Assembly: GCA_964187785.1 (NCBI GenBank)
Contig: OZ076409.1
Location: 55,864,001-55,928,000 of the forward strand
DNA length: 64,000 nucleotides
Source: Amphiscolops sp. MND2022
Taxonomy: Eukaryota
Direction: 5' to 3'
Position 1 is the stretch's first letter, and every line of letters begins with the position of its first letter. Both the position numbers and the translations under genes were made by a program. This document shows positions 1 through 64,000 of this stretch, one piece after another. The notes beneath the pieces were generated by a model. That model was not told the DNA's origin. It saw only the letters and a program-made list of their open reading frames with translations, and searched no databases.

Positions 1-2
1 TG

Positions 3-1424
3 CCGAATCTTCCCCTAAGTGGAGGATTTGAAAATGTCCTAACAGCAATTGACGTATTCTCTAGATATTTGTTCGCCTATCCTCTTACGGACGCATCGGC
101 GATCAACGTAGCAAAAGCCCTCATTGACATTATGACTAAGCACGCATATTTACCGACAACACTTATTACTGACAAGGGTACTGCATTTACGTCCACGATC
201 ATTGCGGAAATTACGCAAATTTTGGGCATAACACTCAAATGTGCAACAACAAAACACCCACAAACAATTGGGAAACTGGAGCGGACCCATGCCTCGCTGA
301 AAACAAACCTCAAAATGCCATGTGGAGAGTACCGCCGACAATGGCACAAATACTTGCCACTAGCAGTACTAAATCACAACACTAGTTATCATGCCAGCAT
401 CGGTTGTGAGCCGACGAGAGTATTTCATGGAAGAATTCCATATAATATCTTGGATCACAAGCTTGGAAATAATCCAAACGAGCAAGTCAACCCAACAACC
501 GAATTTGCTGAAGAAATCCAAAACCGGACAAAAATCCTGATTGACAAAACAAAGCAGAACATTATGCAGTCGTATATCAAGTAAAAAGAATATTACGACC
601 GCAAAGCAAAAGCTGCTCCATTAAAGGAGAATGATTACTGTTTCGTCTTACAGCCGAAAGCGGATCATCAAGGATCAAGAATCCCATTCCGCGATTATCG
701 TTGAGTTGGACCATTTGTAATCCAAAAAGTCCTGCCTAATGAAAGGTATATCGTACGACGACTTAATACAAACAAAACTCAAATATTGCACTGAATTCGC
801 CTCAAAAAGTTTGTCCCCAAGCAACCGCTTGAGGACAATTTCCGAGAACAGCAATTACAGCCTGATGAAGAGATTGTCATTCTGCAAGATGACTTATATA
901 TCATAACGTGGGAAACAGACTTTGGCGAGCAGCTAATTACACGAGGACACAATCCTATTCCGACTAGCATGCCGAACGGCGAACGGCCGAATGCGGCAGA
1001 ACCGAGTCACAGTGACGTAGACGAGAACGAAGCGGATTACATAATCACGCGAGTAGAATTAAACAACGTCAATGCGACGCACAGCCAGAACGACCGCTTA
1101 AGTGATGACGTCACTAAAAGAAATGAAACTACTACAGTGACAGAAAATGAAGAATCTGATTGGCCGAATCTGGCCGTTTCCCCAAAAAACCAAGAAAAAC
1201 CCTTGCCGAATACCGCAGATAGACCGGAAAACGATGAAATTTTTTCAGAAAGAAACTTGGCGAATGAAAACGATACACAAAATTCTCCAAACAGGGGGGA
1301 TGATATTATCGTGCCCGAAATATCTGAAAACGATGCTAGAAATGAAAGTCTGAGCCCTAAAGGAGGGAGGTATAATCTCAGGCCTAATCCCAACCCAAAC
1401 TACTCAGAAGACTTCAGATACTAA
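3..1424 (+). pseudogene. pol: Gypsy pol C-terminus: integrase catalytic core, GPY/F-like region and acidic tail, interrupted by in-frame stops
   Basis: One frame reads PNLPLSGGFENVLTAIDVFSRYLF...ITDKGTAF...TIGKLERTH...VGPFVIQKVL...RYNLRPNPNPNYSEDFRY*. Stops at 582-584, 702-704 and 792-794. Homologous to ORF 60449..61603. Confidence 0.93.
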
Positions 1425-1650
1425 GAATTGAATTTTCCCGCAAATGGGAGTTCTTTTCTTTATCTTTTGTGTTTTTTTTCGGCCCCTCTGACATCTTCTG
1501 AATAAATAATGGGGCATTCTAAAGGGTCCCTTGCAAAAGAGAATAAATATGGGACCAAGAAACCAAGAAACAAAATAGAAATAAATAAAACAGCAAAGAA
1601 ATTAACAAAGTTTACAGTCAGAGTGTACATATATACATATGTACAAATTA

Positions 1651-4600
1651 CTACTTCGGCGACCCTTGCCTAGAGACACTCTTTACAGAAGAAGACGTGG
1701 ACTTGGTTCCAACACTACCAGAACGCTTTCTCTTCAAGCTACTAGGGATGTCCAAGGCAGGCTGCTTGCTTAAGGCACTGGACGACGCAGTCTCTTCCAC
1801 AGTCCTGACGCTGGCAGAAGGGGCAACAGAAGCAGCCTTGTACGACGATAACAGAGACTTATAAATCCGAGACCGCCCAAACGAATCGACAAAAGTCCAT
1901 GGATCGTAGTCGTTAGCGAAGGCGGCTCGTCCAAAATCCACAGATAAGAGCGAGAACTTTGCCAGGCTATCATCGCTGCTACAGTGGGCAACTGAGTCAG
2001 GCACACCAACCATGTAGCTTTGGGACGGGAGCGCCACATCGGTGAAACGTCCTTTGAAATCCGAAGTGTTAATACCCCCGATAACGACAGCGGATAGTGT
2101 AGGGCTGCTAGATGTAAGACAGAGGCAACAGAGCTTAAACAAATACAGAAGGCGAGGTCGATCATGAAGAAATTCGAGACCTATCAAGAATCCAATCAGA
2201 TCTGGCGATGTCTCAGTGACGTCAAAATTAGAGGGATATGTACCTCGGAGATAATCTAAGAGTTCAAGGTACTCAGTTCGGTAAGTGGTCTCATCGGCGC
2301 TGGTCACCCAGGAACGCAGAAGGAAAGTAGTGTATAGGGTCTCAAAATGACGAAGAGCAACTTCAATTGGCCGCTTATGGAGAATAGAGGGATCAAAGGC
2401 GGCAAGTTCCTTAACAATGTCTGAGTTCAACCCAGACTGACGAAGGATAGTATCAAGTAGGTAGCCAATGTACTGGCATGCACTAGTTGCAAAACTTGTC
2501 TTCACCGTCTCAGTAGTCATTTGAAAAACAGATGGAGAAAAATCGCTCCCAGAGTGAATCCCTTCCGCCTTCTGTTTACTGGCAGTACTGACTTTCTGAG
2601 TGAGCTTCTGCCGGACAAGGAACTAGTCCACACCCATGTATTTTCCTTCCGAGGTTTTGAAGGCAAGAAGGACGAACCAGGCATTCTCGAGTGGTGTAGT
2701 ATCAGGAGTATAACATCGGAAGCACAACTTGTGGATGAAGCGGCATACCTCTCCACACAAATAAAACGATGCATCTCGCCTCTGGCTCAAATTAACGACG
2801 AAGCTGGTCACGTCTGAAAACAGAAGCCTATGTCCAAACTCGGACATACAACCGGGTTTCTAAACAATACGAACCATACTAACAATCACTGACGAGAAGT
2901 CGGAAATCTCCAGCTTAACCACGAAGAATTCGTCGCATATGAGTGACCATTCGAAACTCTGTACCTGTAACAAAATGCGCCGTGAAAGTCCTATAGTAGC
3001 AAACCCAGAGATAAGGAAACTAAATCCTATACAAGGGACTAATGGAAACTTAGTCAGGGAAGATAACCCACCCTGGTATGCACTCCTTGCCCTTCCTGCC
3101 TGGGAGAATACTTCGTCAAGTATTGGGTGATCTGTTTCCAATGGACAACCAGTTCGCGGCAAAGTTCAGGAATTTCCTGCAGGTTTAGTTTGCTGGTAGC
3201 TATAGCCTAAAAAGAACAAACCCTGGTAAACATGAGGCTTAATAGCAACTGGATTACAACTTAACCCCTTCCAGTCCCATAGTCCAATTACATTGTGATC
3301 TACTAACACGGCTGAGGTTGGTGGACTTGAGGGCCCATGGCTCGGCATTTGAGTTCCCAAGGGAGATGACCAGAGCTTGCAGTACAGAGAAGAAATCAAT
3401 CTTCCCGAACACAGAGTAGCTCAGCTTGTGCATCAAAGTGGGAAGGTCCAAGCTGTCGAACCGGAAGCAGGTCTGGATTCCTCGGTTAAAGAAAGATGAC
3501 TGATTGAGAGTCTGAATCAAACCAGTGGGGTCTCCGGAGCAGGCAACAATATCGACACGCGTGGACGTGACAGAAAGCAAACGAGCTAGACACCCCAGCT
3601 CACCAGTCAAGTTTGTGGTCGGCAAGGCACTTCGGCACACGAACACTCGGCACAGATCGCTGCCCTTCCAGATTCGTACTGACATAAATCTGAAGGTCTT
3701 CCTCTTCTCGAACTCCACAGAGAAACACTGCTCGTTAGTGACTTGCTCAGCGATGTCCTCCATCGCCCCATTGAAATAATGCTGGAAGATGACCTGAACA
3801 AAACAGTACATTTAGACGTTAACCAAAGACGCAAGGCTAGAACAAACGGTGTGGATACTTACGGTGAGCCGTTCTGCCCCCCAGTCGAAGTCACACAACG
3901 AAGCCTGGTAGTTGGTGAAGGAACTGACTCGGGCCCACAGATTTCGGAGAAGAGAAAGGTCACCTCGGGTCTTGATAAAGTCAGCCACAATGCAGATCTG
4001 AGTTTTGGACTAAGGAGTGACTAAGGCTGTCGTATGCCCTTTCATGAAATCATCGTAAAAGGAAAACCTTTCCCCTATGTCCACGAGCTCAGCATGGATA
4101 AATTTGGGCAATTCATCGGCAAGCTTTAACATGTTGAGAAGTTTTCCGTCTCGCCCCCTTACTCGGTGTTGCACCTTTCCAGTTATGGGGTCAACTGTTT
4201 TGAGGTGTTCATAACGCCACCTCTGGTCTCGGCGCAGGTGCTTCTCGCTTCTGTGGTGACGCAATATTTCAAGAGTCCTTTTGGTCTTTATGGAGAAATT
4301 CCGTTTGCAAATATGGCACCAGACCATAAGCGGATTATGCAATGGATCGGCAGGTCCTGAGATGAAAGACCTGGTCCAACCGATCTTCCTGAAGAATTCC
4401 TCCCGCATTTAGACTCCTCTACGGGACACCCCCTAGTCTTCTTAGTCTTCTTGGGAGAAGGCTCTTCGTGGGACTTCCCAACTCGGGACTGTTCACGTAT
4501 CTCTGATAGCGTGGCGTCCTGACTAGTGAAGTCACTTGTTCCCACTTCGTCCGAAGAACTGACGTTAGGCCTGGCAGTGCTTGTGGTAGCAGAAGGTCCG

Positions 4601-5750
4601 ACAAGGGCTGGTTTTGCAAACGAAGCGGCTATAAGTGCCATTTCAGTGGCGCCATCACTTTCCTCACAGCTCGTGACATTGTCCGAAATTTGCCCAGAAA
4701 TTGAGTGCCTAGGCAACTCTGAACCTGACTCGGACTCGAAACTGGAATCGTTAGAGTCGCCTCGTGCGGGTGTTTGTGCACGGGTCCTCAGCCTGAAATG
4801 GTCAGTTCGTGGTTGACTAGTGGTCGGTTGTCCCTTCAGAGCGTCCAAAATCATTTTCTCCATCGTAGTGTATGTGAGACTCATGGTCTCGTTGGTGAGG
4901 ATTTTGAGCAAGTGATATATCTGACCCTCTGAGAAGGCTACTGTTGGATGCCCTAGAGGAAGGCGAAATGCTTCCGCAGTCTCAAAATACTCTTTCAGGA
5001 GAGCTCGACTACGTCCTGATAGCTCATGCAGTTTGAAACGAGCTTGGCCAGTAGATGTACTGGGGGCAGCAGCATCAATCTGGTGGGAGCTAGACTCATC
5101 TCCTCCTTCCGTTCCCGACTCAGATCCTTGGGGAATCCCCGAGTATAGAAGAGGCACGGTTGGGTCTTCACTCTCTTCGAACAGTTCCCCCTCACTTGCT
5201 TCAGTGAGGTACCGCACGACGCTCGCCCCGTCAGGCAAGGGAGGGGCGTCATGGAGAGAGGAGGAAGTATCTTCTTCTGACGGTCTCCTTTCTTCTCTTG
5301 ATTCTTCGCCTTCATTATACTGAACTAGGAGTAATTCAGTCAATTGGGTCCTGGATATTGGAGCAATTTCGAGGTTGGCCTCAATGGACGTGAAGCTTGC
5401 AACACCCTGTCTGGTTTGGGGTTTAGGCTCGGGAGTACTAGTACGGTTGCGAATATCAGGTGCAGAGGAATTCTCCCCAGACTCGTAGTTCTTGGGTGGC
5501 TGTTCATCGGCGGGATTAGCAATGATGGTTTCTTCTTGAATAGAAGATTGGACTTTCTCCATAATCCGGACCATCGTCTCAGCGAAAACGTAGACATCGG
5601 TTTCACTATCCACACTCTGAGGGGACACTTGCAGTCCACTTTCAGATGTATGCGGAGCCTGAGTTGTAGGATCGTCGGGAGTTCTAACACTTGTGGGGTC
5701 TGGTGTCTGAAAAATCCATTCTACCGCTTTTGAAATCTTCCGGAAGTGTC
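1651..5750 (-). pseudogene. Antisense intron-containing cargo gene of element A: long disordered N-terminus, C-x2-C-x16-H-x5-H zinc finger, hAT-transposase-like body lacking evident catalytic motifs
   Basis: ZnF WCHICKRNFSIKTKRTLEILRHHRSEKHL in ORF 4010..4408. GT-AG introns at 3862-3794, 3307-3207, 3071-2965 and 2883-2814 join the ORF pieces. Homologous exon by exon to 55366-59700. Carries a few stops and frameshifts; the 5' end is unresolved. Confidence 0.75.
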
Positions 5751-6776
5751 TTGAAAATCAATAGAAACGTGTTAACACGTGGCTCATGATGGAAACAGGA
5801 AGCAAATATGAACAAATTTCGACGTTGATCAAGTTGAGTTAGTTCAAAATGAAAACCAGACAAACCTGTGTTATGAGACATGTGGATGATTCTACGTCGT
5901 TGGGACAGCAATCCTTATGGGATTCTAGAAGATGGGGATAGTGGCCGGGCGCGGCTGCAGTTGAAGAGAAGACACGAAGAAACCCAAATGGGGAGAATCC
6001 AAAAACGGAGTCAGGAGTGAAAGAGGGTTACGGTTGTTAGCAAGGATCCAATTATAAAGAAAGCAGAAATGTAAAGAATTTGAACGGTAAAAGAATCGAA
6101 ATTCTGTAACAATTAGTAAATTGAAAGTTGGAGTTCGTGGCTGAAGAAAATTACCAGAATAATATTATTGAATTATCTACATATTTAAAATGTACATGGA
6201 GTCTGCCAGCGAAATGTACAGAAGACCTTCTTTATATGCAACTTATTCAATTAGTGGCCAAATATGGCTGTTTGTCCCATTTTGTTTTACCGTTTTGTTC
6301 CACTATTCTAGTTCTGTTCAGTTAGAATGTTTGCCATTTTGAATTATTCGAGATTATTATTTTTTGCCATTTTATTATTCATTTTTCAAATTATCGAAGC
6401 TTGGCTCTGACTGGCCGAAGCCATTACGAGAAATTTTGGTGACGCGTGCCGTTAATTGCTTACAAGCGACCCGTTAATTACCCACTTGAGACGGGTGTAG
6501 TTGATATTCATAAGTCGAGCGCCATTTACACCTCTTCTAGTGATGACACTGATGAGGGGTAAACATCAGGTTATCAAAAGAAGCCGACTAATTATGAAAT
6601 TCCATTCAAGAATGTTTGTGACGAATAGGGGCAATCGACCAAAGTTTTAACCGCCAAATTGAAACTTCGGGAAAAAGCCTAACTCGGCTAGATTCTTGGT
6701 TCAGACAAATTCATTCTACCTAAAACTTCATCTCAACTCAGTTGCAAAAGCTTCAAAAATAGTAAAGAAAGTCATC

Positions 6777-7561
6777 ATGAACAAATATAACCTCGCAAGG
6801 AAACTATTTGGTCTGGAAGAATCTGACTCTGATGATTCTGGAAGATCAGTAATATATATATCGAGCAGCGAGGAAGAGTCATCAGATTGGGAGACCGACT
6901 GTTCCACAGACGCGGAGCAGCTTGTTGCGAGAATCGAAAGAGAAGTCACCTCCAGCCCCATGCTAATCGGGGGCCGCATAATGACTACGGAGGAATCTTC
7001 AGAAGACGAACCAGAAGCTGGCCCCAGTTCTTCCCAGAAGCGAACAGACGTGATTCCGAAGTTTGACCACAAGTACTTTGACGAGGAGATGTGTTACGCT
7101 CCCCCAAAGAAAGCAGCTAAATCTCGAATTGAACTTTGCAAAACCCTAATGCCCGTGCCAGAGTCGCCTATGTCACCGCCTGATCACGAAAGAGGGCCGA
7201 GTATGGATACCCCCTGATGCAGCCTGTTATGGGAGGTTTTCATGCCTCCTATCATGTGCAAAGCACCAGGCCCTACGAGAATATTAGCACGAAGTTTTAT
7301 TCAGGATGCATGGTCTGTGGCAGATCTTCAGAGGCAATCAAGAAGGAGAAGGTGGAATGGTACGTCCCGAGGTCCAAGCCTAGAGGGGAACCCGAATACA
7401 TAACAAAGATCAGAAGGGAAGCGTACGAAAATGGACTGAACGCTGGCGCCTTTCTCTTTATAACACCCGCAGTGTCGCAGGCTGCCGCCTGTGACGGTAC
7501 TTTAATAACGACGACAGCGACAAGCCAAGAGACATTGCTCCGAACTTTGCCTACATTTTGA
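6777..7561 (+). CDS. Sense accessory ORF(s) of element A: acidic/Ser-rich N-terminal part plus a CxxCGR domain; split at a TGATG overlap (7215-7219)
   Basis: GCMVCGRS...RREAYENGLNAG...SQAAAC matches GNCHWCGRT...RSRAYL(N/D)GFEAA...QPRAC in ORFs 53187..53540 and 48903..49256. Confidence 0.6.
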
Positions 7562-8479
7562 GCAAGTATATTTTGTATTTCAAAACTTACTTTTAGTAAC
7601 AATATTTGCTCTCAAACCATTACATTTTCCAATACGTTGCAGTTCATATTAGTCTGTTAATATTACGATTTGGGATAGGCCAAATCAGTTTGCTGTTGTA
7701 TTTACTGTAGAATAGAATCAAAATGCCAGATTGATTTGATGCAATAACAAACAACAAGCAAGTTAATTGCGAGAAGGAAACGTGTTCAAGTGCGGAAACG
7801 CCCTTTCTCGGCGACGTAACTTGCTGTACATTGTCAGCCAATCATATCGTTCCTTTTTGAATTATGGGCGCTTTTATTACATAATGGCCGAATAAGGCCT
7901 TTTGACTTAACGCAGTGCACGCCTGCTGGTATTTATGTCAAATGGCCGGTTCTGGCCAATTCATGCATTATAGTATTTTGTTGTCTAATTAAGCAAGTAA
8001 TTACTCGGAGCTAACTTTCCAAGATTTGAAACTAAATTAAAGCATTTGTAACGCTTTAATGTCTGTACAATCTTAACCTAAAAAGATGGACGATTAAGGC
8101 CATCTTACAATGTCTCTTTGAAAGTTGTGTATTTTATGATTTTGGGCCTATTCCGGCCCTAACATGAAAGTGCGTTCTCATATATATTTGGATTGTATTG
8201 AAGCAATATACACGTGATGATGCATTCCACTCTCAATAACTCGTGTCGGCACGTGCCTTTACTACACTCCGCTGTAAGGAATGTGAGCGGAGGCATTTGT
8301 TGACGCTTTGATATGATGTTTCAGTTAATAACTGATTTGATACTTCTGTCTTGATCAAATGACCTTTGAATGCCATTTCCTAAATGTCCCCTAATAATAT
8401 GCAGTTGTCGGGACATTCTCTGTGAAGTAATAAATCACGTGATTCCATTTTTCTTGACTAGTTATGTAAAGTATGTGAA

Positions 8480-9212
8480 TGTCATCCCCTCATGAGTATA
8501 TATACTGATACTCGGCCTGAGTGGGACACAATTCATTTGAGACGCTACTAGTAAAGATTGAACTACAAACGGCTTCGCTGTTATTTTCCGTATTGAATAA
8601 TTCATTGTTAATTCGGAACTGTTTCTATGCCTACTACTAGAAAACAGTCAAGAAAGTCAAGAGGACTCGAAATGCTGTCAGATATCGAGAACGTAGACAT
8701 TATGTTAGGTGAAAATCACTTCAACGCAAGAGAGAGAAAGAGAGAAGGTAGTTTGAACAGTAACTTGCGTAGAAGGTCTAGAAGCTTCGCAAGCAATGAA
8801 TCTGAGAATGAAAATGGAAATGTAGGTAGAAATCAGAGAAATGATCACGCTAGAACAAATACCGAATATGATCAAAATTCAGTTACAGCCAACTCTAGTG
8901 CTGAGATTAACAGGTTGTCAAGTGAATTGAATTCCCGCATTTCACGGGAAATGGACGAGATGATGAATTCTGTGAGTGTTCAGATACAGAGGGCCATAAG
9001 CGACGCGATAAGCACTCAGGTACTTCCTCAAATCCAAAACGTTATTATGGCCGGATCGGGACAAGGGACCAGAAAATGATGGGACGTTCCGGCTGAGAGA
9101 CCGGAACTGCCTTCCGAAGTTCAGCGAAACTTGAATGCGAAAAACAGCTTAAGAAATGAACAAGATGGGAACCAGTCAGACAATGATTTTCCTGGTTTAA
9201 ATGTTCATGACA
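8480..9212 (+). repeat. Putative 3' LTR of element A containing the N-terminus of a gag-like ORF (ATG 8627)
   Basis: Terminal inverted TGTCATC...CATGACA. ORF MPTTRKQSRKSRGLEMLSDIENVDIMLG is homologous to the ORF in 16144-16743. The left boundary is uncertain because no clear PPT is visible. Confidence 0.5.
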
Positions 9213-19999: not shown

Positions 20000-22900
20000 T
20001 GTTATACGGTTCAACTTTCAAATACCGGACTAGACATATGACCTCTATCGAGTTTCGGTCGTAGACAATTACCTGCCATATTTACAAACAAGAGACATTT
20101 GATATAAAACTTTATTATATCATTTTATGCTTTCCTACGATGCTATATGTTCGATATAGAAAGAAGCTATTTTTGAAAACTGTTTTATCATACAAGTGTA
20201 GAATACAACATGGCGCAATCAGCTAGTTCTTAACCAAATTAGCATTTCTCAAACCGAAACCATGACAGAGAAAAACATCGTACCGAACTTAGAAGCAAAA
20301 GCATCAGACGGAAACCCAATATTCACACCGAGGCAGTGGCTAGAAAGATTCCGGCAGAAACGGAAACACAAAATCGACATTACACCATTATTGAAAGGAG
20401 AAGATGTTACGGATACCGAATGGCCGGGAAAGAAACAGCAATTCAAGAAGATTTTATTTGGGGAGTGGGACCAGAAGCCCTCTATCAAATAACCAGAGCC
20501 GAATTTGAAACGGAACCGGACAGCACAGAAATAAAAGACCTAATCCGGCTATATACCGAGCACTACCTACCGAAGCGTAACACGTACTACAACCGAGGCG
20601 ATTTCTTTTGGGCCAAACAATCACAAAATGAGACACCGGAAGAGTTCTGGACAAGATTAATCGAAATCGAGAAAGAATGCAACTTTGACATATAAGCCGA
20701 AGAGTTATTGATTTCAATATATATGACGGCGATCACCGATAAAACATCACCGTGACGGGACCAGATGATGAAGGAGGAAAACCTCGAAATGAAAAAAAAA
20801 CAAATGAACTGATAAAACAAAAGAAATATGAGAAGAAGAACAAAAAGAACACAATACCCGAAGCTTTGATTACAACAAAAGAAAAACAACTGATCAGAGA
20901 AGAACCGATACAAAGAATGGAAAAATTCGGTGCTAGACCAAAAACCAAATTTACGGGAACCCAACCTTGCAGATTTTGCAACACCACGGATTGGAACCCA
21001 TTACACTAAAGTCCGGCATCGCAGTCGAATGGTAACAACTGCGGAAAAGGGACACTATGCAAGGGCATGCCGGCAAAGACGAAACAACAACCGAACAGTG
21101 AAAAAACTTACAGAAGAAACAGAGAACGAACCAAATGAATCCCTCAGCAAATCGGATGAAAGTATACACCATTTAGAAGAAATAAAGAACATCGAAGAAA
21201 AAAAAGAAACATTACACAGCGAAAAAAAACGGGGTAAAAAAAGAATTCATAATTGATACCGGGTCACCGGTAGCATTAATGCCTTTTGATTGAACAGATA
21301 GTGAAACAAACCGAAATACAGAAAATAACGACCCGATACCAGGAAAATAATAAAAACGAAGTGAAATTGCGGAGGAAGATACGGGTGAACATAGAATACG
21401 AAAATAACAAACAGAAGATGGACATCCTGATTACCGAAAGAACGTATATAACACCACTCTTGGGAATGTACTGGATGAAAATATTCATATTAACAATCGG
21501 AAGATTTCAAATGGCCGAGAATAACCAATCAAAAATAGAAAGAATATTGATCGAATTTGCGAATTTATTTGGAAACAACCAAACAATAAAAGACACCGAA
21601 ATAAATATACAGCTGAAACCGGGACACTACCCGGTAAAACAAAAAGCCAGACCCGTCCCGCTACACCTACAAGAAGAAGTAGGGAAAGAATTGGAGAAAC
21701 TGATAAAAGCTTGCCACCTCGAAAAGGTAAATAACGTGGATGAGGACTGCTTCGAGTCACCGGTGCTAATAGCGGTGAAAAACGATAAATCGGTGAAAAA
21801 AGCCCCTGATTCCCGAAAATTAAACGATAGCTGTATTAGGCGGAGACAACATATGCCGAACATGGAGTAATTATCGAATCAGATATCGATACAAATTACC
21901 CGAGTCCGAACAGCCTATTTATTCCTTTCCAAAATCGATTCAGACTACTCCCGCCAACTACGGGCAATTGAAATTATCGAAAGAAACAAGCCGACAAAAA
22001 CATGAGAAAAAATTGTTCGATGTGTTAAACAAGTTAGAAAATACTGGCTACCGAGGAAGTGAAAGAAAATCGGAATTCTTCATGAAACAAAGAAAGTGGC
22101 TGGGACACGAACTTGATGAGAACGCAATGAAACCGAATGAAGAAAAAGTGGAAGCAATATTGAAATTGAAGCCGCCGAACTACACAAAACAAAGAAATTG
22201 AATTCATTCCTCGGTGCGATACATTAACCGGCAAAATTTCTACCGAACCTTTCGGAAACGAACAACAGACTCAGAAAATTGTTGAAAAAAATAAACCATG
22301 GAAATGGTAAAAGGATAAAGAAGAAGATTTCACGCAAATAAAACGGATGCTAACCAAAAAACAATACAAGGAACATTACGCGAAAGACAAAGAAAACTTG
22401 CGCAAGTAAAACCGGATTCGGAATTATCTTTTGGCAAAAACAAGACAGTGGAGACATTAAGCCAATTGCATTTGGTAGCAGATATCTGAATGGTACCAAA
22501 AAAAGTTATTTTATCGGTGAATTGGAACCGCTAGCAGTAGTTTGAAGATTAGAAAAAATCCGATTTTACCTTTACGGAAAGAAAGTACACTTTAACACAG
22601 ACCACCTAGCATTATAATCAGTAATAAAACGCAACCGAAGCGATCAACAAAATTGCGCAAGGCTAACCTGGTGGCTGGAAAGATTGGTACATTTTGACAT
22701 CGTAGTTCAACCTTTCGCCTACAGTAAAACAAAATATACCAATTTCTTCAGCAGAAATCCGGTAGGGGGAGCCGCGATAGAAGACAAACACGACGAAGAA
22801 TATGTAATTAACATCCTTACTGAACACGCCTCATTGAACGCAAAACATGGCTCGCTCTTCGACAATCAATCAATCAAATTCAAGAACAGAAGAGACCCAA

Positions 22901-24992
22901 AAGGAACGAAAGCAAAACTGAAATGAAAGTGAGCAAAAGCAGAACCAATCACAAACAAATAGAACATTCCAGAACAAGAACCAAGTGATCGAACTTATCG
23001 CAAAAGAGAATACTACATCCGGGCAGTCCGATATTAGCACCGCGAAAAGCATATCAAATTCAAAAATCGTTTTTACTGAAAACAAAATGAACCGATAAAA
23101 TTTATATCACTGGGGAGCCTCCCGAGAGATAATGGAAATTATTCGAAGAAGAAAAAAGCCCGGTGACCAGGAGACTGGTGGAAAGGAGAGAAACGCTTTC
23201 TAGACCGAGAACCATGCGGAGAAGATATGATCCACAGTCACAAAAGGACTGTATTTGCACCGCCAAGGCCAAACAAGAGAAGCCGGGAAGAGATTGCAGA
23301 AATCGACGCAGAACTTACACATAGAGCGAACCGGATAGGTGGAGCTATCAACCGATAGAAATCATCGAAAAAGAAGGAGAACCGGAATCTCCGGAAAAGG
23401 AAGTGCAAGCTGACAGTGTAATTATGCGAGGTGATAAACTACCGATCGTCGACTTGAGCAAATACCACACTGATAGAAAAGAATCTCACTATATACAAAT
23501 CAATCACATAGTGGACAAATTAATGGAGAACAAGATGTTGACCGGAGACTATCATACAGAAAGCCGAATTGAATTTTTTATGTTGGACTTAAAGATTCTC
23601 ATTTCAAAAACGGTAATTGATCCGGAGATGACAAGAGTCCGAGCAAGGATGCGGAGAGAAGAAACAGACACGGCACCGGAAGGATACAGACCGGTTTTCG
23701 ACAAGCTATCAATCCGGTGGGGTCTAGTCTTTGAGGGCGACCAGTTGCTGTACCAATAGACTTGAGAAGAAGACTGATCAAAATACTACATGCCAGTCAC
23801 TTTGGCACAACAACAGGGCTATCCGACGCCTAAATATTCTGGTGGCCGGGGATGCGGAAAAAAATAGAGCAGAAAGTTAAAGACTGCACTGCATGCTTCG
23901 CCACAGGTAAGAACCCTAAATACCAAATTGCAAATATCAACGCGATAAGGTAGATAAACTAACCGAACCGGGACAAGAAGTACAAATAGATTTTACCGGA
24001 AAATTACACATGAAACATTTAAACGGAGATTCTCGAATACCAATAGCAATAGATCGGCTTAACAAATGGCCAACAGCGCAAATTTTCAAAACAGCCGAAG
24101 AAAAAGAAGTTATAAATTTCCTGACAAATCATTTTAATTTACACGGATTCCCAGACAGAGTAAAATCCGACAAAGGAGAGCATTCATATTGTTCGAGTAC
24201 GAAAAATTTTGTAGGTCTCGGAATATAGACGATCAACACTGCCCAATACGAATGCATATCGGAAACGGTACAGTAGAAAGAGCAAGAGCAATCCAAACTT
24301 TGAAAAAATTACTATTGGCAAACATGGAGGACGGAAGTAATTTAACCGAAAGTGTAAACCGAGCATTAAAAGTAATGCGATTCACAAAACATACGGGACT
24401 GAAAAAAAAGCCATTTGAACTACATCACGGTAGAAAACCGAGAACGGAGTTAACAAATATAATGAAAAACGGAAAGTTTTTCCTATCAGATTGGGTCAGA
24501 ACTGTCAATTTTAGCACCTAACAAGCCAAAAAAAAACCACTATATGTTGGAAGGGACGCTGAAGAAGAAATCATCAATCATGTGGTTATGGCCCGCACGA
24601 AGACCGAAGAACTACAACTGGCTTCGGGGACCAAATCACCGAAGAAGAAAATTCCGGTTAGAGATCCTTTCAATTTTGTTGAAATGAAACGCAACCGAAA
24701 ATCCCTAGAAGGGAGATTTCAGTCAAAACTGCAAACTGCAATAAGCGGGACAGAAAATACCGAAAAACAGATACGGGAAAAACTTTCGGGACCTTTGTTT
24801 CAGAGTGATAAAAGACACCGAAGAGAGACGGTACCAGCAGTATCAGAGGTGATAACCCAAAGAACCGTCATTGCCTGAGAGGACTACACGGCAGATACGG
24901 GGAGTGGGACTATATTACAATATACTGCGCGATATTCTGAAGGGAGAGCTCCGAATCGTCTAGAACAAAAAGCGCACCGAAACAGATTCGGA
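20000..24992 (+). mobile_element. Heavily decayed Gypsy element (5' LTR about 20000-20210, PBS, gag, protease, partially deleted RT, RNase H, integrase); 3' end truncated
   Basis: TGTTATAC...ATACAACA|TGGCGCAATC (PBS-like, 20211). Protease FIIDTGSPV near 21245. RT KQKARPVPLHLQEEV...DSRKLND. RNase H KPIAFGSRYLN. Integrase HASHFG...CTAC, QIDFTG, SDKG. Many stops and frameshifts. Confidence 0.9.
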
Positions 24993-25448: not shown

Positions 25449-25755
25449 GCTGAAGAAAAGTTGCGATTTTAGTCGAAAGTGTTGTTGTACAATGAGTCTC
25501 CGATTAGTCCAAAAATATACAAGTAGTCTAGGATTTTCAAAATGTCATTTTTTGAGCTTTGATGGGAACCGCCTGTTTTTTGCTTGTGGAATACTGTTGA
25601 AATTTTTAATTTATTGGCGGGATCAAAAGTAGGGAGTTCGAAAAAAAACATAAGAAATTTTCCGTGAGATTTCTGCTACATGGGGTTTTGGGTGGTTTGG
25701 AGACTCAGTGTACACTCCGGGAAAACTTTAGGACTACGATGGATCTCCGATGATC

Positions 25756-26308
<553 letters not shown>

Positions 26309-26959
26309 CCATTATAGACGCTGTGTATCGGCCCTCGATAATTAGAGATTGTTTTCAGGGGGTCCCCATTTTCAGGTGCTTTTCCCTGGTTTCGTTACAA
26401 AAAATACCAAAAGATTGTCGTTTTTTATGTTCGGTTATTCTAGTCAACTTAATTTTTGACCCACAGACGGAATCTGACGTTGCTACGACGAGTTTTAGGA
26501 GAAATTCGAGAGCCGTTTAAAAAACGGAGTAATCAGCTTGAAAATGTAAAAAATGGAGACTCGGCGTACAAAATTTGTGAAAATGTAGTACTCTGTGTAC
26601 AGCAAGATGAAAATCGGAGACTTCGAGTACGGTGCAAAAATTTGTTGTATTAACAGTCCAACCATGGATTTAAAGTTCGCCTAGGGAACGTATTCGCCAC
26701 GTACAACGTCAGTTTCGAGATACTTTTCGTTTATGGTTTTGAGTTTAAAAAATCGAGACGCTGTGTACCAGCTAGGAAAATTAGAGATCCTGGGTTTACA
26801 ACAAAAAAAAGAGAAACATGGGAATGTTTCTTCAGTTATATCAACAAATACCAAGACTTGAACATTGGAATGGATGCAAAACTATTCCGTAACAATAAAT
26901 GAAAGTTTGAAGAAAGTTTTGATTGGACGGAACTAATAGTTTAAAGGTCCAAATGCTAG

Positions 26960-29167: not shown

Positions 29168-29936
29168 TTATGTGCTGATAGCTCCGTGACTCCTTGAATT
29201 GGACGAATCCAAATCGGGCTTGGCCACAATGGGACAATCTTCCTCATTTTCAAACAAAGTCTGCTCTCTATCGGCGAACATCTGCACAATCTGGTTGACA
29301 CTCTTTCCGGCAACTTCGGGCAGTCTTATATACAGGTAGGCTATGAAAATACACAAGAGCACGAAGAATATCATGAACACCCAACCGCACAGTACATCAA
29401 TCAAAGGTGAGAATCCGATTGCAATGGCAAAGTTGCAGAGCCAGTTGACAGTGTTTGCAATAGAGAGGGCTTTGGGTCTGGCTCCGGACGTGAACAATTC
29501 GGGTGCAATCAGCCAAGGAATGGCCCCGGGGCCCAGGGAGAAAAAGGCGATGTAGATAAATATGAAGGCAATAGCAACATACAGTCCCCCGTCGTTCACG
29601 TGTATTCCGCTACAAGTTTGGTCATCGTCTGTAGCGAGGTCGCTAAGTAATAGTCCGACCCCTAACGTGCAAACGCACATTCCGAGTAGACCAATCAGAT
29701 GAGACTTTCGTCTTCCCAATTTGTCAATGGTGAAGACGGATATGGTTGTGACTATCATGTTAACCAGTCCGGTTATGGCCACCATGTAGTTTGGCAAGTC
29801 CTCGTCTTTGTTCACAGCATCTTCCGGTAAAGCTGCCTTGAAGATAGGAGACGAGTAATAGTTGATTGCGTTGATGCCAGACAATTGTTGCGACATGGCC
29901 ATGATACACGAAATTATGAGAGGTCGTCGGAGATAG
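29168..29936 (-). CDS. SLC2A: SLC2A/GLUT gene A, distal terminal exon 4b (TM7-TM12 and C-tail)
   Basis: TTTTCAG|C-YLRRPLIISCIMAMSQQLSGINAINYYS...DKLGRR...GPGAIPWLIAPELF...RLPEVAGK. The phase-2 acceptor matches the exon 3 donor, giving a 541-aa product. Confidence 0.9.
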
Positions 29937-30214
29937 CTGAAAACAAATCAATCTAATTGTAAAACAGGGTATTCCAATCAGAGCATTATCAATCAGACTG
30001 GAAACAAATCAATAAGGTATTTGAGAAATCGAAAGAAAATCAAACAGTTATATGAACATTTTTGCTATGGTGGAAAGCAAAGTTCAAAAAAGAGAATTTA
30101 AAGTCAATTGAATTTATGTTCATATAGAAATTACTCTTTCTGCATATAAATTTATAGCAAGAAACAAACGGAACTATTCGACCAGTAGGAAGACGGGAAA
30201 ACCTCATTTTTTAC

Positions 30215-47326: not shown

Positions 47327-47410
47327 CTAATTAATTTCAGTTAACACCTCAATTGAGTCTAATTTCTGGATTAAACAATTCCTTAAATGCCTGCCGTAAA
47401 GAATTGTATA

Positions 47411-55365: not shown

Positions 55366-58300
55366 ATGGTTCGTTCAAAAAGCACTTCTAATCGGCGTCG
55401 CAAAGCTTCAAAGGAGAAAAGGACAGCTTCGACTTCCCAGGATCAACCATCAACCACTGCAGCTATTTTGACAGGTAAGCTTGAGTTCATTTTCTTTGTG
55501 TATTATTGTTGCTTTCTTGCTTTTTTGAGACGTCCCAGATTTTTAAATACAAGTTGGCCAGACTCGTATTTCATTGACATATCTTTTCGATTTATCAACT
55601 TCCTGTCTTCAAGTTTTTTGAACGGAAACGCTAACTTCTTGTTTTGGTTTCTAGCATATTTCCATTCCGAATTTTATTTCAGGTTCTATCTCAGCTACAC
55701 AAACAAAACGCATTGCCGAGTGTTCTGAGCCGCGGAAATCTGCTAGAATCCAAAGGACTCTGCTTGAATGAGGCTATAATCCCCGATTTTCCCTTGATGA
55801 GGAAGACCTCCCTCCAGCTTTTGTTCCTCAAGTACTACTGGAAGATAATTTTGATGAACTTGTGAACGCCGTTGATTCGCCAGACTGTGTTTCTCTAAGT
55901 GGGAAGCAAGCAGATACAGCTGGGGATATTCAGATTGGAACAGCTGATAAGGACGACACTACTGAAGTAACGGAAAATACTGACGCTCCTATAAGCGGAA
56001 TTCCAGCAAATCCATCGGCACCTCTTGACGCCGCTTCTTCAAAATTCGTGCACTGTAAGGATAAGGACGTTCTGACAACCCAGACTGGGAACACTCCAGT
56101 TTCAGCCAAATGATCCCCTTTTACTAGGTATCTAATTAAAAAGACTGATCCATCTAAGGAACAAGGGAAAAACGACACGTGTGCTGTTACCTCGGAGCAA
56201 AACAGCCCCAAAAATTCTGACCCCCAAGACACTTGGGCAGCTCCTTTCGAGAGACTTTTAGCCGAAGCGGCAGAAGAAGCTGCTATGAAACAGATTCAAC
56301 TCAACTCCAACTTAATGGTTCCGGATTCTGCTCAAACCGATGAGCGCGGCGGGAAAGAAGGGCGCCCCGTGACTGAGGCTATTACCACAACAAATCCACC
56401 AGATGTGGTTGGAGACAATTATCAGCCATCCGATTCAAGTTCAAACAGTAGCACCGATTCCGATCTGGAGATGTCTTCCACTGAAGAGTTTGTCGCTACT
56501 CCAGAGAAGCCTCTCAGGAAGCGCAAGGCAGAGAAGAAAAGTAGTCCAGCCAAAAAACGGGCTGAGCCTCAACATATGCTCGCCGAATGGATGTACGATA
56601 AGTACCCCATCCTCAGGTTCTTTGCCGCTGCACCTTCTGATGCGGCCGGAAATCCAAATAAGTACCGCTGTCGCGTTTGTATGGTAGAACTTTCTCTCAA
56701 AACCAAAGGTCCTTTGGAAATGTTACGGCACTATCGGACTGATGCGCACCTAGTACGGGAACACAGATTCCGTATGGAGACTCCTGGACTTGCACTATTC
56801 GATAAACAGTGCGTAGAATTGACCGGAATGGCCCTAAAGTACGCGAAGGAGAGAGCCAAACGGGAGTACCCGATCGCCCCCAAGCTTGGCGATTATTACC
56901 TCCTAGTTGATCAGCAAGAACTGCCAGAAAAAACGGAACCAGATAACCCGGACAAGGAGACATTGTCACAATTGACCCTACTCAAGTTCGGATTATGGCA
57001 TGGTGGACATTTGGATTCTCTGATCGCCCTCTGGCATGACCTGATCACGGAGACAAGGACTTCAGAATCTGTTTCCACACACGATTGGAGACCACACAGG
57101 ATCTTGGTAAGTTGTTTTGGTAGTCGTTTTTGTCTAAAAACAGTCTAGGTATTTGGAAAAGGTTGTCTTTTTATAGGCGCTCCTAGCCCACATGTTTCGC
57201 GAGCTCCTATCATACAGTGTCACTTCCATTGAGTCCTCGGGCAGTTACTCCCTCCGATTGGCATTCACGGCACAAGAGACGAGGCTCTTCGTGAATTTCT
57301 GGTCCGGAAACTCATTACACAGCATGTGTTCAGCCGTTCTCCCCGGCCGACTTACCAACCAGTCTGCCTTGATTCCAATCATTAGCAGTTTCTTCGCTCT
57401 ATTAGACAAAGAAGTACACCTGCCTTTCTTAGCTGGGTTTTCTCGACGTCTTGCTTGGACTTTTTCCCGAGTCCTACCTCAGCCCAAAAGGATCTGTAGT
57501 ACACCAAAATTCGGTCCTGAGGACTTGGAGGATCTTCTGCTTGTCCCCACAGTCCAAATTTTGACAGGCTCGACTTCAGGAGTGTTCTGGATTTCCTGCT
57601 TCTCCGACTGAAATCTGCTTGTGGAAGCTCCTGGCTGTCATCCCTTCCAAACTTTGAAAAAGTTTACCTTTTATATTTCATTTTCCAAACATTTTGTAGG
57701 AATATCTGCTTGGTGACATAATTTTATTCTCGTGTAAACGTGGCTATTATGGCTCTGGTTCACAGTTCTTTTTCTTGTGAAGGTTCCTTCCCTTTTAGGA
57801 GAAATTAAGTTTCCTTTCGCATAAGACACTTCGCAGATATTTCTTTGTTGCATATCCAAGCTTGCAGCATAATACGGCACAATTGGTCTTCTCAATTAAT
57901 TTTTCAAAAGGTTTTGCTCACGATTACGTAATTTAGTATGTTGTAACGAATGAGTCACTATACGATATTTGTTTCGACTTTCTGCACGTGAATATCTGTG
58001 CTCGACTGTTTCTTTGATTTTGGCACCCGCTCATTTTCACTTCGTGATACGTGGTGTTACGTAATAGAAGTCAAAATTTTTGTGTTGTTACAGCTGGCGT
58101 TCAATCTTGACTATGACCTAATACAAGCTGTTGAGATTCTCGATCAACTGATTCAGAACTGGGAGCACGTCACTTCCCATGTGCGGGACAGCAGGAGAGT
58201 GGCTGCATATCGTTCTCATATCCAAGAGGTTTCTCTTCTTATTTGCTTCCTTAGTGGGTATTCTTCACATGGTTTTTATATAATTTTTGGTTTCCTTTCA

Positions 58301-59700
58301 GCCATCTGGGATGGATGATATCATCACCAAGGATCGTGTGCTGGTTGTACGACTGTTTATCATCCGCAACATTTTGAGTCAATGTTAGTCTTCCTCTTTA
58401 ATTGTTTTACTTCAAGTGTCATTTCCAAAGTAGACTTCAACGTATCGCACAAAATTCCTTCTGTTTTGGTGGTTCCTTATTAGTTTCGTATCAAGCTTCA
58501 TAAGTTTCTTTCTGTTCTAGACAATTCAACCTTCAAGGAAGTAGATGCGAGTGTAGCTGGAGGGTTTCGCAACTACAACCACTTCTGTGTCTTCGTGTAC
58601 ACACAGATGCAAACCATCTTCCCTACGTCCTTCCTTGGGAGCATCAGCAATTGGGACAATTACATGCAATTAAACATGAGTGAAGTTACTTTGCCTATCA
58701 AGACAGTTGATGAATTTCTGCAGGATAAAGACCTCTCCGATTTGTTATATAGGAGCAAGATCCCTACCCCACGGAAATTCGCTGAGCAGGCCATATCATT
58801 CTACCGTTATTTTATCAAACAGTTGCTTTCCTGTGAAATGGCTACGTCTTCATTTGCTCGTGGGCTTTCGTCGTTTGATGAAGCTGTGATATGCGATCGA
58901 GAGGAGGCGCAGTATGAAGACTCTATCCAAACCCTTGCCGGATACTTCGTCCAAAAACGATGGATCTCCCCCCATGTAAAGCCTGTTGTAGTGAGCGAGT
59001 ACTGTTCTCTCGTCACCAAATTCCGTGCAGACAAAGTTTCTAGTTCAAATAAATATGTCAGTTTCATTTCCTGCTACTATGAGCTTCAATGCAGATTGGA
59101 ATTGTCCCGCCTCTTTAAAGTTTGTTGTGAAACGCTCAGAAGCCCTTGTACCCACCTCCAAACTTTGTTGTACCTTTGCCTGGCTTAAAATCTAGTAAAA
59201 TGGAATTCTCTTCTTGCGTGAGGAGCTTTCAGTGTTCCCTCAGTTCCATTCAAAAGGTAGAGAGTCTTTTCTTATCAACAGCTGCACTTCCTCGTGCATA
59301 CGATCTCCTCAACCAAAGGCCTGGGCTACTTCTCAAATGCAAGTTCTCAGTATCGAATCTCCTGAATTCGACTCATTTTTTGAAGATTGGCTTGCTGTCT
59401 ACTTTGGAGTCCTGTTACGCCACGAATGTTGCTGTTGACAGTCGTACTTGAATTACAGCAGGGAAAGAACCCAGCTTTTGCTCTAGCCGTAGTAGTAGTA
59501 GTAATGCTAGTTTCCCTGTAAAGTCTTTTTCAGCAAAATCTTCTCCAGAGAAATCTTCTCCTGAGAAATCGTCTCCAGATAAGACTAAACAGCCAGTTGC
59601 TGCAGATTCCGGTGTTGCCCCAGCTGTTCGTAGTTTGATTGAACTTCCCTTCCTGACTGCTTCAACTTCTGCTGTCTCTCTCTTCCAGTGGTGATAAGAA
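55366..59700 (+). pseudogene. Antisense intron-containing cargo gene of element B: zinc finger plus hAT-transposase-like body
   Basis: Exons 55366-55474, 55683-57106, 57177-57661, 58094-58228, 58302-58383 and 58521-about 59700, with GT-AG introns. ZnF YRCRVCMVELSLKTKGPLEMLRHYRTDAHL. Homologous to 1651-5750. Several stops and frameshifts. Confidence 0.75.
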
Positions 59701-59880: not shown

Positions 59881-62800
59881 TTAATATCGGTAGGAGTCTG
59901 AAAAGTTAGGATTTGGGTTGGGTCGTAGATTGTATTTTTCACCACGTGTATTGGTAGAGGTTTTCTCTTTTTGAACCTCATTATTTTCTTGATTTTCATC
60001 TGTATTCTTTGGGGTTTTTTCTGCATCAATAGTAGGGTTAGGTTGTAAGTCTTGTTGATTATTATTTATATCGATTTCATTTTCTGTATTTTCGGGTAGG
60101 GTTTCTTCTTTAGGAACGGTAGTTTGTTATACGGGGCTCCCCTACTGTTTTTTGAAATTTCGAGGGAGGGTGGGTGGTTTATCGGTACAGATTCTTGTAT
60201 GTCATCTTGTTCGTTATCTGGGAGTTCTATTTCAAATGGATCTGTACCAAAGTTTGTATCCCATGTATGGGCATACAGATCATCGTGTGTAACCATTATG
60301 TTGTCATCTTTTTGCCAATCTGTTTCTCTGACAAAATTATCGGCTAGGTGCGCTAGGTGTAAATTTCCTCAAACGTATTCGGTGTAACAGTTGTGTTTTG
60401 TTTGTCCCTAGCCTTCGTAGAATGTAATTATTGTTTGGTAGGACTTTTTCAACTTTGTAAGGACCTATCCAACGGAATTCTCGGAACGGTGTTTTTGTCG
60501 GCCTTCAGGTTCAGTATGTAGCAATAGTCTGTTGTAGTAAGCGGTGCTGCTTTTGCCTTGCGGTCATAGTATGCTTTATATTTCAAATATGACTGCATGA
60601 TTTTCTTTTTGGTTTGGTCATTGAGTATCTCCATTCTGCGTTGTATTTCTTCTGCAATGTCAGACTGTGGAGTATAACGTGGGTTAGGGTTATAGCCTAG
60701 CTTGTAGTCTAGGATGTTATGTGGTATCCTGCTGTGGAAAACACGGGTGGGTTCACATCCTAAGCTGGCATGATACGTTGTGTTGTGGTTTAATACAGCC
60801 AGTGGTAAGAATTTGTGCCAATTTTTGCGAAATTCACCTGTTGCTGCTTCCAAATTTGTTTTTACTGTAGCATGAGTGCGTTCTAGCATGCCGATTGTTT
60901 GTGCATGTTTTGTCGAAGCATGTTTTAGCTCAACTCCAAGCACTGCTGCTTCTTCGCGGGTGATTTGTGAGTTGAATTGAGTGCCCATGTCAGTTATTAT
61001 GGTCGTTGGTAAATATGTGTGTTTGCACAAAATGTCCATAATGACTCTTGCGACTGTAGGGGCTGTGATTCGAGTTGTTGGATGAGCAAATAAATATCTT
61101 GAGAAGACATCAATTGCTGTTATAATGTTATCAAAACCTCCACTCGGTGGGAGATTAGGTAATATGTCCATCTGAAGAATATCTTCTGGACCGAGGTCCC
61201 ATTCTGGACAATTTAGGAGTTCTGTTTTCAGTAAATCGTTATTGATTCTTTTGTTTTGAATGCATATTTGGCAGTTTTGTACCCAATTTTTGATGTGCTT
61301 TGCCAAGCTTGGGTAACAGTATTTCTGTCGCGCTTCCTGTATCATTTTTGTTATTCCTGGGTGATTTGCATTGTGTCCATGCAATGCTTGTAGGAACTCT
61401 TCGAGAAGCTGTTTCGGAAAGAGTATTTGGTAGTGTGAGATTTGTCCAATATCATTGTAGTATTTTGGTACAAGAATGTCTTGGCGGATTTCGATTCGGG
61501 GTATGTTTTGTAGGTATTGCTGGTAGCGATTGTCTTGTGTGAACGTTGACTCATCAAAAGGCTCACCCTCTATTTTTGCTGAGATTGCAAAGGACTGGGT
61601 CATTATTTTGTTCGAGTCGGATTTTTGCGTTGTCTCGAAATCGTCCTTCTCAATAATCTATTGTTCCGGCAGTTGGTTTATGGAAATTTTGTAATTCAGT
61701 TATTTCATTTTCCGGTTCGTTGTGTGTTTCTGTTTGTGCTTGATTTCTAATATTGTCTTTTTGTTCCCAGAGTGTTTTTTCATAATTTTCATCGTCTGGG
61801 TGGATGTAAGATTGTTCTTCTTCGGCTATGCCGGAGGATTGGATATTAACCTCGATAGCTTTTGTTTGTATGTCGTTGCGTAAATTCATTTCTAGTTTTT
61901 CTGTCGGGTTGATTTCCGTTCGCGGCAAGAAGTCTGCAGCTGTATTCATTGCTCCTGCTACATGTGCTATAACGAAATTGTACTACAGGACGTAGTCGCA
62001 TGAGTTCCATAGTGCTAGGGGGATGATTTTTGTTTGGAAAAATCTAGTGACTGCTCGGTTGTTGGTGAAAACGATTACGGGAAAAGTACTTCCCCACATT
62101 AGGTGTCCAAATTCTGAGAATGCGAAGAAGATGGCTAATAACTCTTTGGCATATATTGATATTTTTAGTTGGGTTGGGTTGAAAGTTTTTGAGCCGAATG
62201 CGATATGGGCGTATGTTTTGCGTTTGGATTGTAGTTTTTGTTGAGGGTCGTCTTCAATCATAATCGCATATCCTGCCGCTGTAAAACTGGCATCGGACAT
62301 GACGATTAGTTGTTTGTCTTTAAGTGGTTGTTTGAGTGCCATTTGGCAAGATTGAAGGAGGAGGTCGTTTAACTGTTCAAAATTGCTTGTGAGTTCGATA
62401 GAAATGTAGAATTTGTTGGTTTCTTTCAGCAGTTTGAAGAAAGGGGTGAGTCGTTCCGAAAAGCGCGGTATATAATTTCTGTAATAGTTCAGAAAACCAA
62501 TATACCTTTGAAGACCTTTTTTGGATTTTGGGAATTTAAGTTTCGCTAAGAAATCTTTGACTTTGTTTACTTGGGGAGAGACTCCTTCAGGTGTAATCGT
62601 TCTTCCTAGGAAGTCGACTTGTTTCACTCCAAAATGGCATTTTGACATTGACAGTTTCAAACCTGCGTTCCGTTTACATTCGAAGACTGCTCGGATGTTT
62701 ATACACAGTTGTGACACTGTGTTTGCTGCGATTCCGATGTCGTCGACGTATTGGGCGCATTGGTCTGCTTTGATGAGGGTGTCTAAGTATTCTCGTATGA

Positions 62801-64000
62801 AACTGGAGAATGCTGATAGTGATCTGCGAAGGCCTTGTGCTAAACGCCGATATGCAAAGGTTCGGCTAGCAAAGTTAAAGGCCAACATCTGAATTGATTC
62901 GTAATCTGCCATCTGAAGGCAGTGGTACGCTTGTGAACAGTCAAGTTTACAGAATAATTTCTTTCTTGCTATGTGTTGGGCTGCATCGGAAAGTTTACTG
63001 ACTGGGTGGTTGTTGTTTACGTAGTCTTCGGAGATGAGATTATTTATTTTGCGCAAGTCGACTAAGAGTCGCAATCGACCATTAGGTTTTCGTTGCGCAA
63101 AAATGGGACTTGCGTATTTAGAGAAAGGTAGAGTTGTTATTATACCATACTTGTGAAGTAGGGCAAGTTCTACCGTGATGTCGTCTTTTAGGTTGATCGG
63201 TGTCGGAAGGCTCTGGCTATATGCTGGTCGGTCATCGTCTGGTGTAAGTTTGACCTTGAATTCTCTATTTGTTCCAATGTCAAACCTGTGTCGGGCGAAA
63301 ATATCGTGAAATTCAACCAGCAGTTCTTCCACTTTTTGTCGTTCAAACAGTGTGAGTGTTGTATCACTCCAGTCAAAATTGTCAAGAAATGTTTTGCGTG
63401 ATCTTTCGTCGTCTTGTGGGTTAAGTGTTTCTAGTGTTAGAAGTTCCACTAGTTCATCAAATATTCGTTTCTGAATTGGTGTGTATGTTGTCGGGTCTCC
63501 AGGTTGTTCCGGTGTTGGAAACCAGTATTGTTCCGTTTTGTCTTCTTTGTTGTTTACTTTTAGGAGTTCGTTTAGGTATACGTCCGTAACTTCAGTATGT
63601 TGATGCATGATGAATGTTAGCATTGAAGGGTTGATTGGTTTGATATATTTTATTTGTTCAGGGGTTAAAACTCAAATGTCGGCTAGATGTGTGTCTGTTG
63701 TGATTGTATAGGGTAGTTCTGAGAAATTACAGATCTGGTATCCAACTGCGTTATTGTTGACTGTGCAGAGGGAAGATACAAGGAAAAGTGTGTCATGATC
63801 CTCAAGGTGCGTAGATGGCGTTACTATGCCCTTGCATCATGATCATTTGAGTGCGGCATTCTGCTTGCAATGAGCATCGTTTCACCCGGTTGCAGTGTGT
63901 ATGTTGTTTCTTCAAGTAGTGGTGTTGATTGTCGTGTTGGAAGATTGTGTTCTGGTTTCAATTGCATTGATAGATGTGGAAAAGTTAATATTCCTTGTCG
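59881..64000 (-). pseudogene. pol: Gypsy pol (dUTPase-like linker, RT, RNase H, integrase, tail) with stops and frameshifts
   Basis: RT LRLLVDLRKIN, KLDCSQAYH, QYVDD. RNase H SDAS...IAFGSKTF. Integrase HGHNANHPG...CQIC, QMDIL, ITDMG, LERTH. Ends KYNLRPNPNPNFSDSYRY* at 59881. Confidence 0.95.

Follow-up and report, generated by a model that had tools for sequence, protein, structure and literature searches.

An antisense gene of Ty3/gypsy retrotransposons, probably derived from a hAT transposase and predicted to be catalytically dead

We analysed a 64-kb stretch of a 1.07-Gb eukaryotic assembly (the window, i.e. the whole of this stretch), which begins inside an LTR retrotransposon carrying an antisense gene behind its integrase. 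This gene, the cargo, is real, conserved and under selection. Structure predictions suggest that its product is probably hAT-derived and catalytically dead. Our main reading, to which we assign a probability of about 0.45, is that the cargo protein is a dead whole hAT scaffold serving as a nuclear, sequence-specific DNA binder that would keep the element's own copies transcribed, as an activator or anti-silencer. Own-genome searches were made against the assembly that contains the window.

The carrier, element A, is a Ty3/gypsy element of 15,846 bp in whole; window bases 1–9212 form its 3′ part, and its 5′ LTR, gag and remaining pol lie upstream of the window. Downstream of the integrase lie, in turn, the cargo on the opposite strand, a further ORF in sense orientation (ORF-X) and the 3′ LTR (Table 1). 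The two LTRs of element A are 97.3% identical, and the target site duplication (TSD) of the window copy is 5 bp long (GGAAT/AGAAT, 4/5 bases agree); 5-bp TSDs were perfect at the ends of 4/5 carriers examined. The carriers thus show the Ty3/gypsy hallmark of TG...CA LTRs with a short TSD, and the pol order RT-RNase H-integrase was found by Pfam on element B, a second carrier in the window, with integrase at the 3′ end in element A. In none of five elements inspected does a purine-rich tract precede the 3′ LTR. ORF-X runs divergently from the cargo and terminates within the 3′ LTR. Its siblings encode about 280–320 aa, are acidic and hold a GCMVCG-type CxxC (e.g. L037:1783-2745, minus strand); a Pfam scan of ORF-X gave nothing above cut-off. 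Counterparts exist in clades C and D and possibly in the intronless clade described below. From the layout, the stretch between the two divergent starts is presumed to be a bidirectional promoter. The gag frame begins within the LTR (in clade A up to ~200 codons before the LTR end) and crosses the primer-binding site, as seen at window 7473–9212 and in L037+L038 and L205+L206.

Table 1. Features of the window (positions without prefix) and CCGCAT arrays at other loci (prefixed L); cargo exons are predicted
Feature	Position	Strand	Remark
Element A pol 3′ end (integrase and C-terminal tail)	1..1424	+	PF00665, E 5.9e-11
Cargo exon 5	1651..2813	-	in-frame stop 2623-2625 in window copy
Cargo exon 4	2884..2964	-	AG and GT in 23/24 clade-A loci
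Cargo exon 3, 45 codons	3072..3206	-	holds RELVVHWKQITQYL; AG and GT in 20/24 clade-A loci
Cargo exon 2, 162 codons	3308..3793	-	predicted RNase H-like core without catalytic Asp residues
Cargo exon 1	3863..5719	-	two frame breaks and one stop in window copy
Zinc finger C-x2-C-x16-H-x5-H	4238..4318	-	within exon 1
Non-coding stretch separating divergent cargo and ORF-X starts	5720..6662	.	
ORF-X, second extra ORF	6663..7561	+	runs into 3′ LTR; in two frames here
3′ LTR, TG...CA, ~1.75 kb	7473..9212	+	holds first part of gag frame
Cargo gene of element B (clade B)	55772..59451	+	decayed too
Element B pol (RT, RNase H, integrase)	60207..63830	-	converging on B cargo; Pfam, tblastn
CCGCAT non-coding arrays	L094:4307-4915; L096:4330-4796; L195:2876-3187, 6577-6822; L199:2779-2995, 6320-6605		

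The original prediction had placed the cargo at 1651..4408. It is located there, but the gene is larger, with predicted exons reaching 5719; AG stands before exons 2–5 and GT after exons 1–4. Exon 1 encodes, in order, a ~480-aa Ser/Thr/Pro-rich acidic N-terminus, a basic patch, the zinc finger and a helical linker. A core of the order b1-b2-b3-a-b4-a-b5 is predicted in exon 2, exon 4 comprises 27 codons plus 1 nt in siblings, and exon 5 holds a helical region with a predicted match to the Hermes insertion and C-terminal region, followed by a basic Ser-rich tail. The window copy is decayed, with frame breaks near 5710–5740, near 4410 and in exon 4 and a stop at 4010–4012 besides that in exon 5. 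Since it is broken in at least five places, the analysis used relatives. Exon 2 is exactly 162 codons long with AG/GT flanks in 36/36 full frames from clades less than 25% identical (12/48 frames, shorter than 155 aa, are left out of this count), and the GT donor of exon 1 is present in 28/29 loci. A distant intronless clade carries the finger, exon-2 and exon-5 homology within a single frame of 880 aa; the LTRs of the element concerned are identical across the 1581 bp compared. This natural single-frame relative therefore confirms the order of the parts without any joining. Natural loss of intron 1 is seen in other genomes, where two ENA proteins (P0075, P0133) read through the exon 1–2 junction, and intron 1 of L097 and L117 keeps the frame and has no stop. 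In L047, L116 and L203 the cargo cassette is partly duplicated in tandem within a single element. A conserved island of ~70 aa, ELSGR...FxLPxGHxTVAFxExQxYHLL, lies inside the disordered N-terminus of L037:3576-5012 and of clade A and D relatives.

The finger pattern had been claimed for both cargo copies of the window, and it is present in both, in copy B within the ORF 56114–57148 (plus strand). The blocks described as shared by A and B, namely FSVEFE...SVRIWKG / YSLRLA...VNFWSG, RELVVHWKQITQYL / DQLIQNWEHVTSHV, LAAFDP / LSSFDE and LFKLCC / LFKVCC, were likewise found in their places. Identity between A and B cargo is 22–29% by tblastn in dozens of loci and was elsewhere scored at about 20–25%; the two clades can be aligned over their whole length. 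Conservation within the cargo is highest in the finger, with 84% identity vs 56–69% elsewhere (59 pairs of clade-A cargo types). Against Pfam zf-BED its best E-value is 0.18, reached in 2/57 sequences and short of the cut-off, so only pattern and position speak for the proposed BED/TTF label.

Each of three clade queries gave at least 150 scored matches in the own genome (first-look candidates, which are not copy numbers, amounted to 6376, 4982 and 5032), and the cargo is spread over at least five clades. In 81/81 fetched loci the last cargo exon is antisense to the integrase gene and converges on it, the layout of an antisense accessory ORF (aORF-3R), with additional support from dN/dS. As these loci were picked by cargo similarity, the count says that a cargo standing on its own was never encountered; it does not say that each element carries one. 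Median dN/dS is 0.03–0.06 in clade A and 0.11–0.13 in clade B, with 0.04 for integrase (pairs with dS 0.15–1.5; 1–10 pairs per cargo class), which shows purifying selection on the cargo. Cargo and integrase distances are correlated overall (Mantel rho 0.83, 0/2000 permutations) and within B (0.81), and uncoupled within clade A (rho -0.12). There, integrase is at least 98% identical while exon 5 is less than 70% identical in 12/120 pairs; the cargo of these pairs is 51–60% identical vs 98–100% for integrase. The gag-pol DNA of L043 and L049 is 93–99% identical and their cargo just 39–60%; L037 and L047 share LTR and gag at 91–98%, and their breakpoints lie where pol ends and upstream of where the cargo begins. 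The cargo gene and its upstream region behave as an exchangeable cassette. A protein library yielded 1040 cargo relatives at E 0.001 or better, and the 20 that were looked up are all unnamed ENA records. Two relatives have best identities of 41–50% and 31% in this assembly, i.e. no close copy, so the family is likely to occur in other genomes, as judged from sequence; a metagenome scan found no relative.

These data bear on two other roles for the protein. Many divergent, selected cargo types on one backbone resemble specificity or incompatibility alleles, and genuine hATs are present in the same genome; the cargo could thus be a repressor or competitor, which would hold down the copy number of its own element or act as a dominant-negative subunit against rival elements or active hATs. 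We consider this rather unlikely, as the family is very abundant and mixed oligomers with resident hATs are improbable given the very low similarity to them. Alternatively, the same dead scaffold might anchor the pre-integration complex at selected places on chromatin or DNA. The retained, putatively DNA-binding finger and the joint travel of cargo and integrase at deep levels would fit such targeting, but the clade A pairs with near-identical integrases and dissimilar cargos speak against it, as does the lack of an evident common target sequence on inspection of five flanks, and we regard it as unlikely.

The origin of the scaffold was addressed by structure and profile comparisons. With a model of the N-half, Foldseek ranks 1–5 were all Hermes, and Hermes was also VIA rank 1 (model 9–339 vs Hermes 23–425; the alignment extends to Hermes residue 23, in the finger region, at an rmsd of 21.9). 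A structure search with the C-half placed Hermes second, as the sole top row covering the whole model; Foldseek and its VIA second look gave no match for the C-half, and Hermes was absent among the 50 rows listed. Structural identity to Hermes-type hATs is 5–14%. Named ESM Atlas neighbours at 0.89–0.93 belong to Dimer_Tnp_hAT, DUF4371, FAM200/ZBED5, GTF2IRD2 and C17orf113 clusters, and the N-half alone gave no usable match there. The predicted order of finger, linker, RNase H-like core, helical insertion and C-terminal region agrees with the hAT order that had been proposed, and the landmarks are spaced by 57 and 365 aa in the cargo vs 63–68 aa (D-D) and 297–358 aa (D-E) in five hATs of the same genome. 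Within this order the hAT dimerisation region (PF05699) at the C-terminus is a tentative assignment. The expected hAT/RNase H-fold similarity was thus recovered at the level of structure for both halves, with modest scores, but not at the level of profiles. No sequence or profile homology of the cargo to hAT transposases was detected: Pfam scans of the window frames and of alignments A1, A4 and A7 gave nothing above cut-off, PDB sequence-profile searches gave no real match, cargo HMMs reached a best E of 0.04–0.07 against the hAT frames of this genome, and hhalign gave a probability of 0.1% against a shallow hAT alignment (19 rows, mostly of Ac/hobo type). The DUF4371-like hAT type was found at only 2 loci of the own genome, too few for a profile. 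A search for longer homologous proteins with exon 5 or the finger region found none, which is weak evidence. The invariant Trp153 of exon 2, taken by eye for the hAT TRW, was dropped; the start of exon 3 fits the spacing equally, and neither keeps RW. A different source would be some DDE superfamily other than hAT that likewise has a helical insertion (Mutator/IS256, P, Transib), or a host gene descended from such a superfamily. The Hermes ranks, the hAT-type ESM Atlas neighbours and, by eye, an FDP-like motif and a helix before the Glu position in hAT order make this quite unlikely; P-element, Transib and RAG1 structures were not among the VIA matches listed, and origins of that kind keep a small probability.

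The features used for comparison with hATs are drawn from PMC10368747, PMC2533014 and PMC3942097. The DDE triad of Hermes is D180, D248 and E572 (PMC2533014), and active hAT transposons have TIRs of 10–25 bp and an 8-bp TSD (PMC3942097). We mapped the catalytic columns by predicted strand ends and by the spacing from the helix preceding Glu in the genome's hATs; the counts refer to 74/111 and 62/106 sequences after removal of those more than 90% alike. At the beta1 end Asp is found in 0/74 and Glu in 25/74 sequences, with Asp in 14/74 one column on, and at the beta4 end Asp is again found in 0/74. At these mapped columns the catalytic Asp is missing as originally predicted, although clade A retains Glu in strand beta1 (25/74 and 29/74 at two columns). 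The predicted Glu position is acidic (D or E) in 0/62, and no column within strands beta1–beta5 is acidic in 60% of rows; the single near-invariant Asp (72/74) lies directly before a helix after beta5. TRW occurs in 0/74, 0/62 and 0/27 members of the cargo sets and E[RS]x[FW]S in 0/62 and 0/27, in line with the reported lack of ERxFS. The DDE motifs are present in 5/5 genuine hATs of the same genome (L151-L155), which have intact D, D, TRW and E and include some near-identical copies. Around the cargo of 4 elements we found no exact inverted repeat of at least 14 bp and one of 12 bp; degenerate old TIRs may persist. Hence neither an intact DDE triad nor TIRs with an 8-bp TSD, which would have marked a functional transposon, turned up, and on these predictions the cargo is very probably catalytically dead. 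Given the missing acidic residues at the predicted cutting sites, reuse as a DNA-binding regulator of the element's copies is likely.

Candidate targets for such a regulator are tandem arrays that sit within introns of the cargo and in the DNA upstream of it, found in 8/9 loci of clade B2 and 9/9 of clade C. The array units are 39–40 bp in one of these clades and 32–33 bp in the other, and CCGCAT is common to both. CCGCAT clustering is stronger than in any of 15 shuffles at 8/8 B2 and 9/9 C loci, at one of them marginally; 16/17 loci have 5–14 copies per 600 bp, the shuffles at most 4. Smaller CCGCAT clusters are located in the LTRs of L195 and L199. None was found in clades A, B1 and D or in the intronless clade, and a GCCATT cluster in the divergent region of the window (4 in 600 bp) did not clearly exceed shuffles. 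By analogy with VANC target arrays and Hermes subterminal repeats, which they resemble, the CCGCAT arrays are candidate targets of the cargo finger; a host factor could also be their binder. Under the activator reading, a hAT would have inserted antisense behind pol in an ancestral element and then lost its ends and catalysis. The cargo would be expressed from the internal divergent promoter, and its antisense orientation would let its introns survive reverse transcription. The finger may bind short repeated motifs in LTR, promoter and intron, as the Hermes BED domain binds subterminal repeats, and the acidic N-terminus may recruit host transcription or chromatin machinery. A more far-reaching version, in which an ancestral LTR retrotransposon domesticated a whole hAT as anti-silencer or trans-activator, and cassette-swapped specificity types co-evolve with motif arrays and drive expansion to thousands of copies, appears doubtful to us. 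A role on RNA comparable to that of retroviral Rev, be it in export, in packaging or in protection against silencing by small RNAs, is very unlikely: an RNase H fold would suit it and antisense accessory genes of plant elements have been likened to Tat and Rev (PMC7264820), but the whole transposase architecture is retained and the motif arrays lie partly in the intron and upstream region, although both are in genomic RNA and thus compatible with RNA binding. A passive nested hAT insertion or a still-active transposase riding in the element is largely refuted, common as nested insertions are (PMC7264820), by a position and strand that stay the same in 81/81 loci from clades 20–60% identical, dN/dS of 0.03–0.13, the absence of DDE and the lack of inverted repeats noted above.

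The predicted domain order and spacing of the cargo resemble those of Hermes (PDB 8edg, 4d1q, 2bw3) and of FAM200/ZBED5/GTF2IRD2/C17orf113 proteins. Unlike Hermes and other hATs, the cargo is without D, D, E, TRW, ERxFS, TIRs and 8-bp TSD, has a long acidic N-terminus and resides in an LTR element. ZBED, FAM200 and GTF2IRD2 are host-domesticated hAT proteins whose scaffold has been kept under selection, and the plant mobile domain is common to Mutator and gypsy elements. Like the former, the cargo would be a hAT scaffold under selection outside a mobile hAT; its owner, however, is a multi-copy mobile class I element and not a single host locus. The comparison class among retrotransposons comprises the antisense ORFs of plant Ty3/gypsy elements (Retand TRP28/PF04195, Grande gene23, RIRE2) and fungal Boty. 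The plant ORFs sit between pol and the 3′ LTR, and the same two sources describe both their origin and their function as unknown and report no similarity to other TEs, although the Retand domain is named Transposase_28 (PMC7264820, PMC11963269). In contrast to them, the cargo is spliced, and a full-length DDE-transposase fold is predicted for it; PF04195 had no match in Pfam scans of the cargo. VANC (VANDAL) and TnpA (Spm) are accessory proteins for their own families, a likeness to the proposed role. VANC targets form tandem repeats in non-coding DNA (PMC5735166), and the DNA-binding domain of TnpA has been traced to a transposase (10.64898/2026.08.24.746577). Both stay within DNA transposons and their activity has been shown, whereas the function of the cargo is proposed from sequence. 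According to preprint 10.64898/2026.08.24.746577, in whose text ‘LTR’ and ‘retrotransposon’ occur 0 times, transposases can serve as activators with sequence specificity, and those that have been domesticated lose DDE. As a partial precedent, DUF4371 proteins are stated to occur in DNA transposons and retroelements (PMC3985635); further context is found in PMC13547354 and PMC6431247. In the literature searched, which included few subscription papers or Repbase reports, LTR elements with a dead hAT cargo are not described; a prior annotation is possible. The family would give antisense extra ORFs a traceable origin in a class II transposase, so that the enzyme of one class of transposon would have been domesticated by another class. 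Natural single-frame versions, several finger types and a candidate target motif in two clades make the question of function testable. If the cargo is an anti-silencer, the VANC/TnpA principle, so far one of plant DNA transposons, would also apply to retrotransposons, in a host that is probably an animal, as GLUT-like transporter genes nearby, judged by eye, suggest.

Element B (55.8–64 kb) has the same layout as element A on the opposite strand. Adjoining the start of its cargo, positions 46183–54753 hold a tandem duplication of 4.29 kb (97.6%) that contains gag-like frames and may include the LTR of element B. Decayed pieces of another gypsy-like element with gag and RT-like frames lie at 20243–24878 (plus strand). 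The window further contains a long tandem array of 9-bp period (25608–26400), a perfect 62-bp inverted repeat with a 13-bp loop (44276–44412) and, at 29168–32164 and 36252–37064 on the minus strand, sugar-transporter-like coding exons (GLUT-type by eye) of at least two paralogues.
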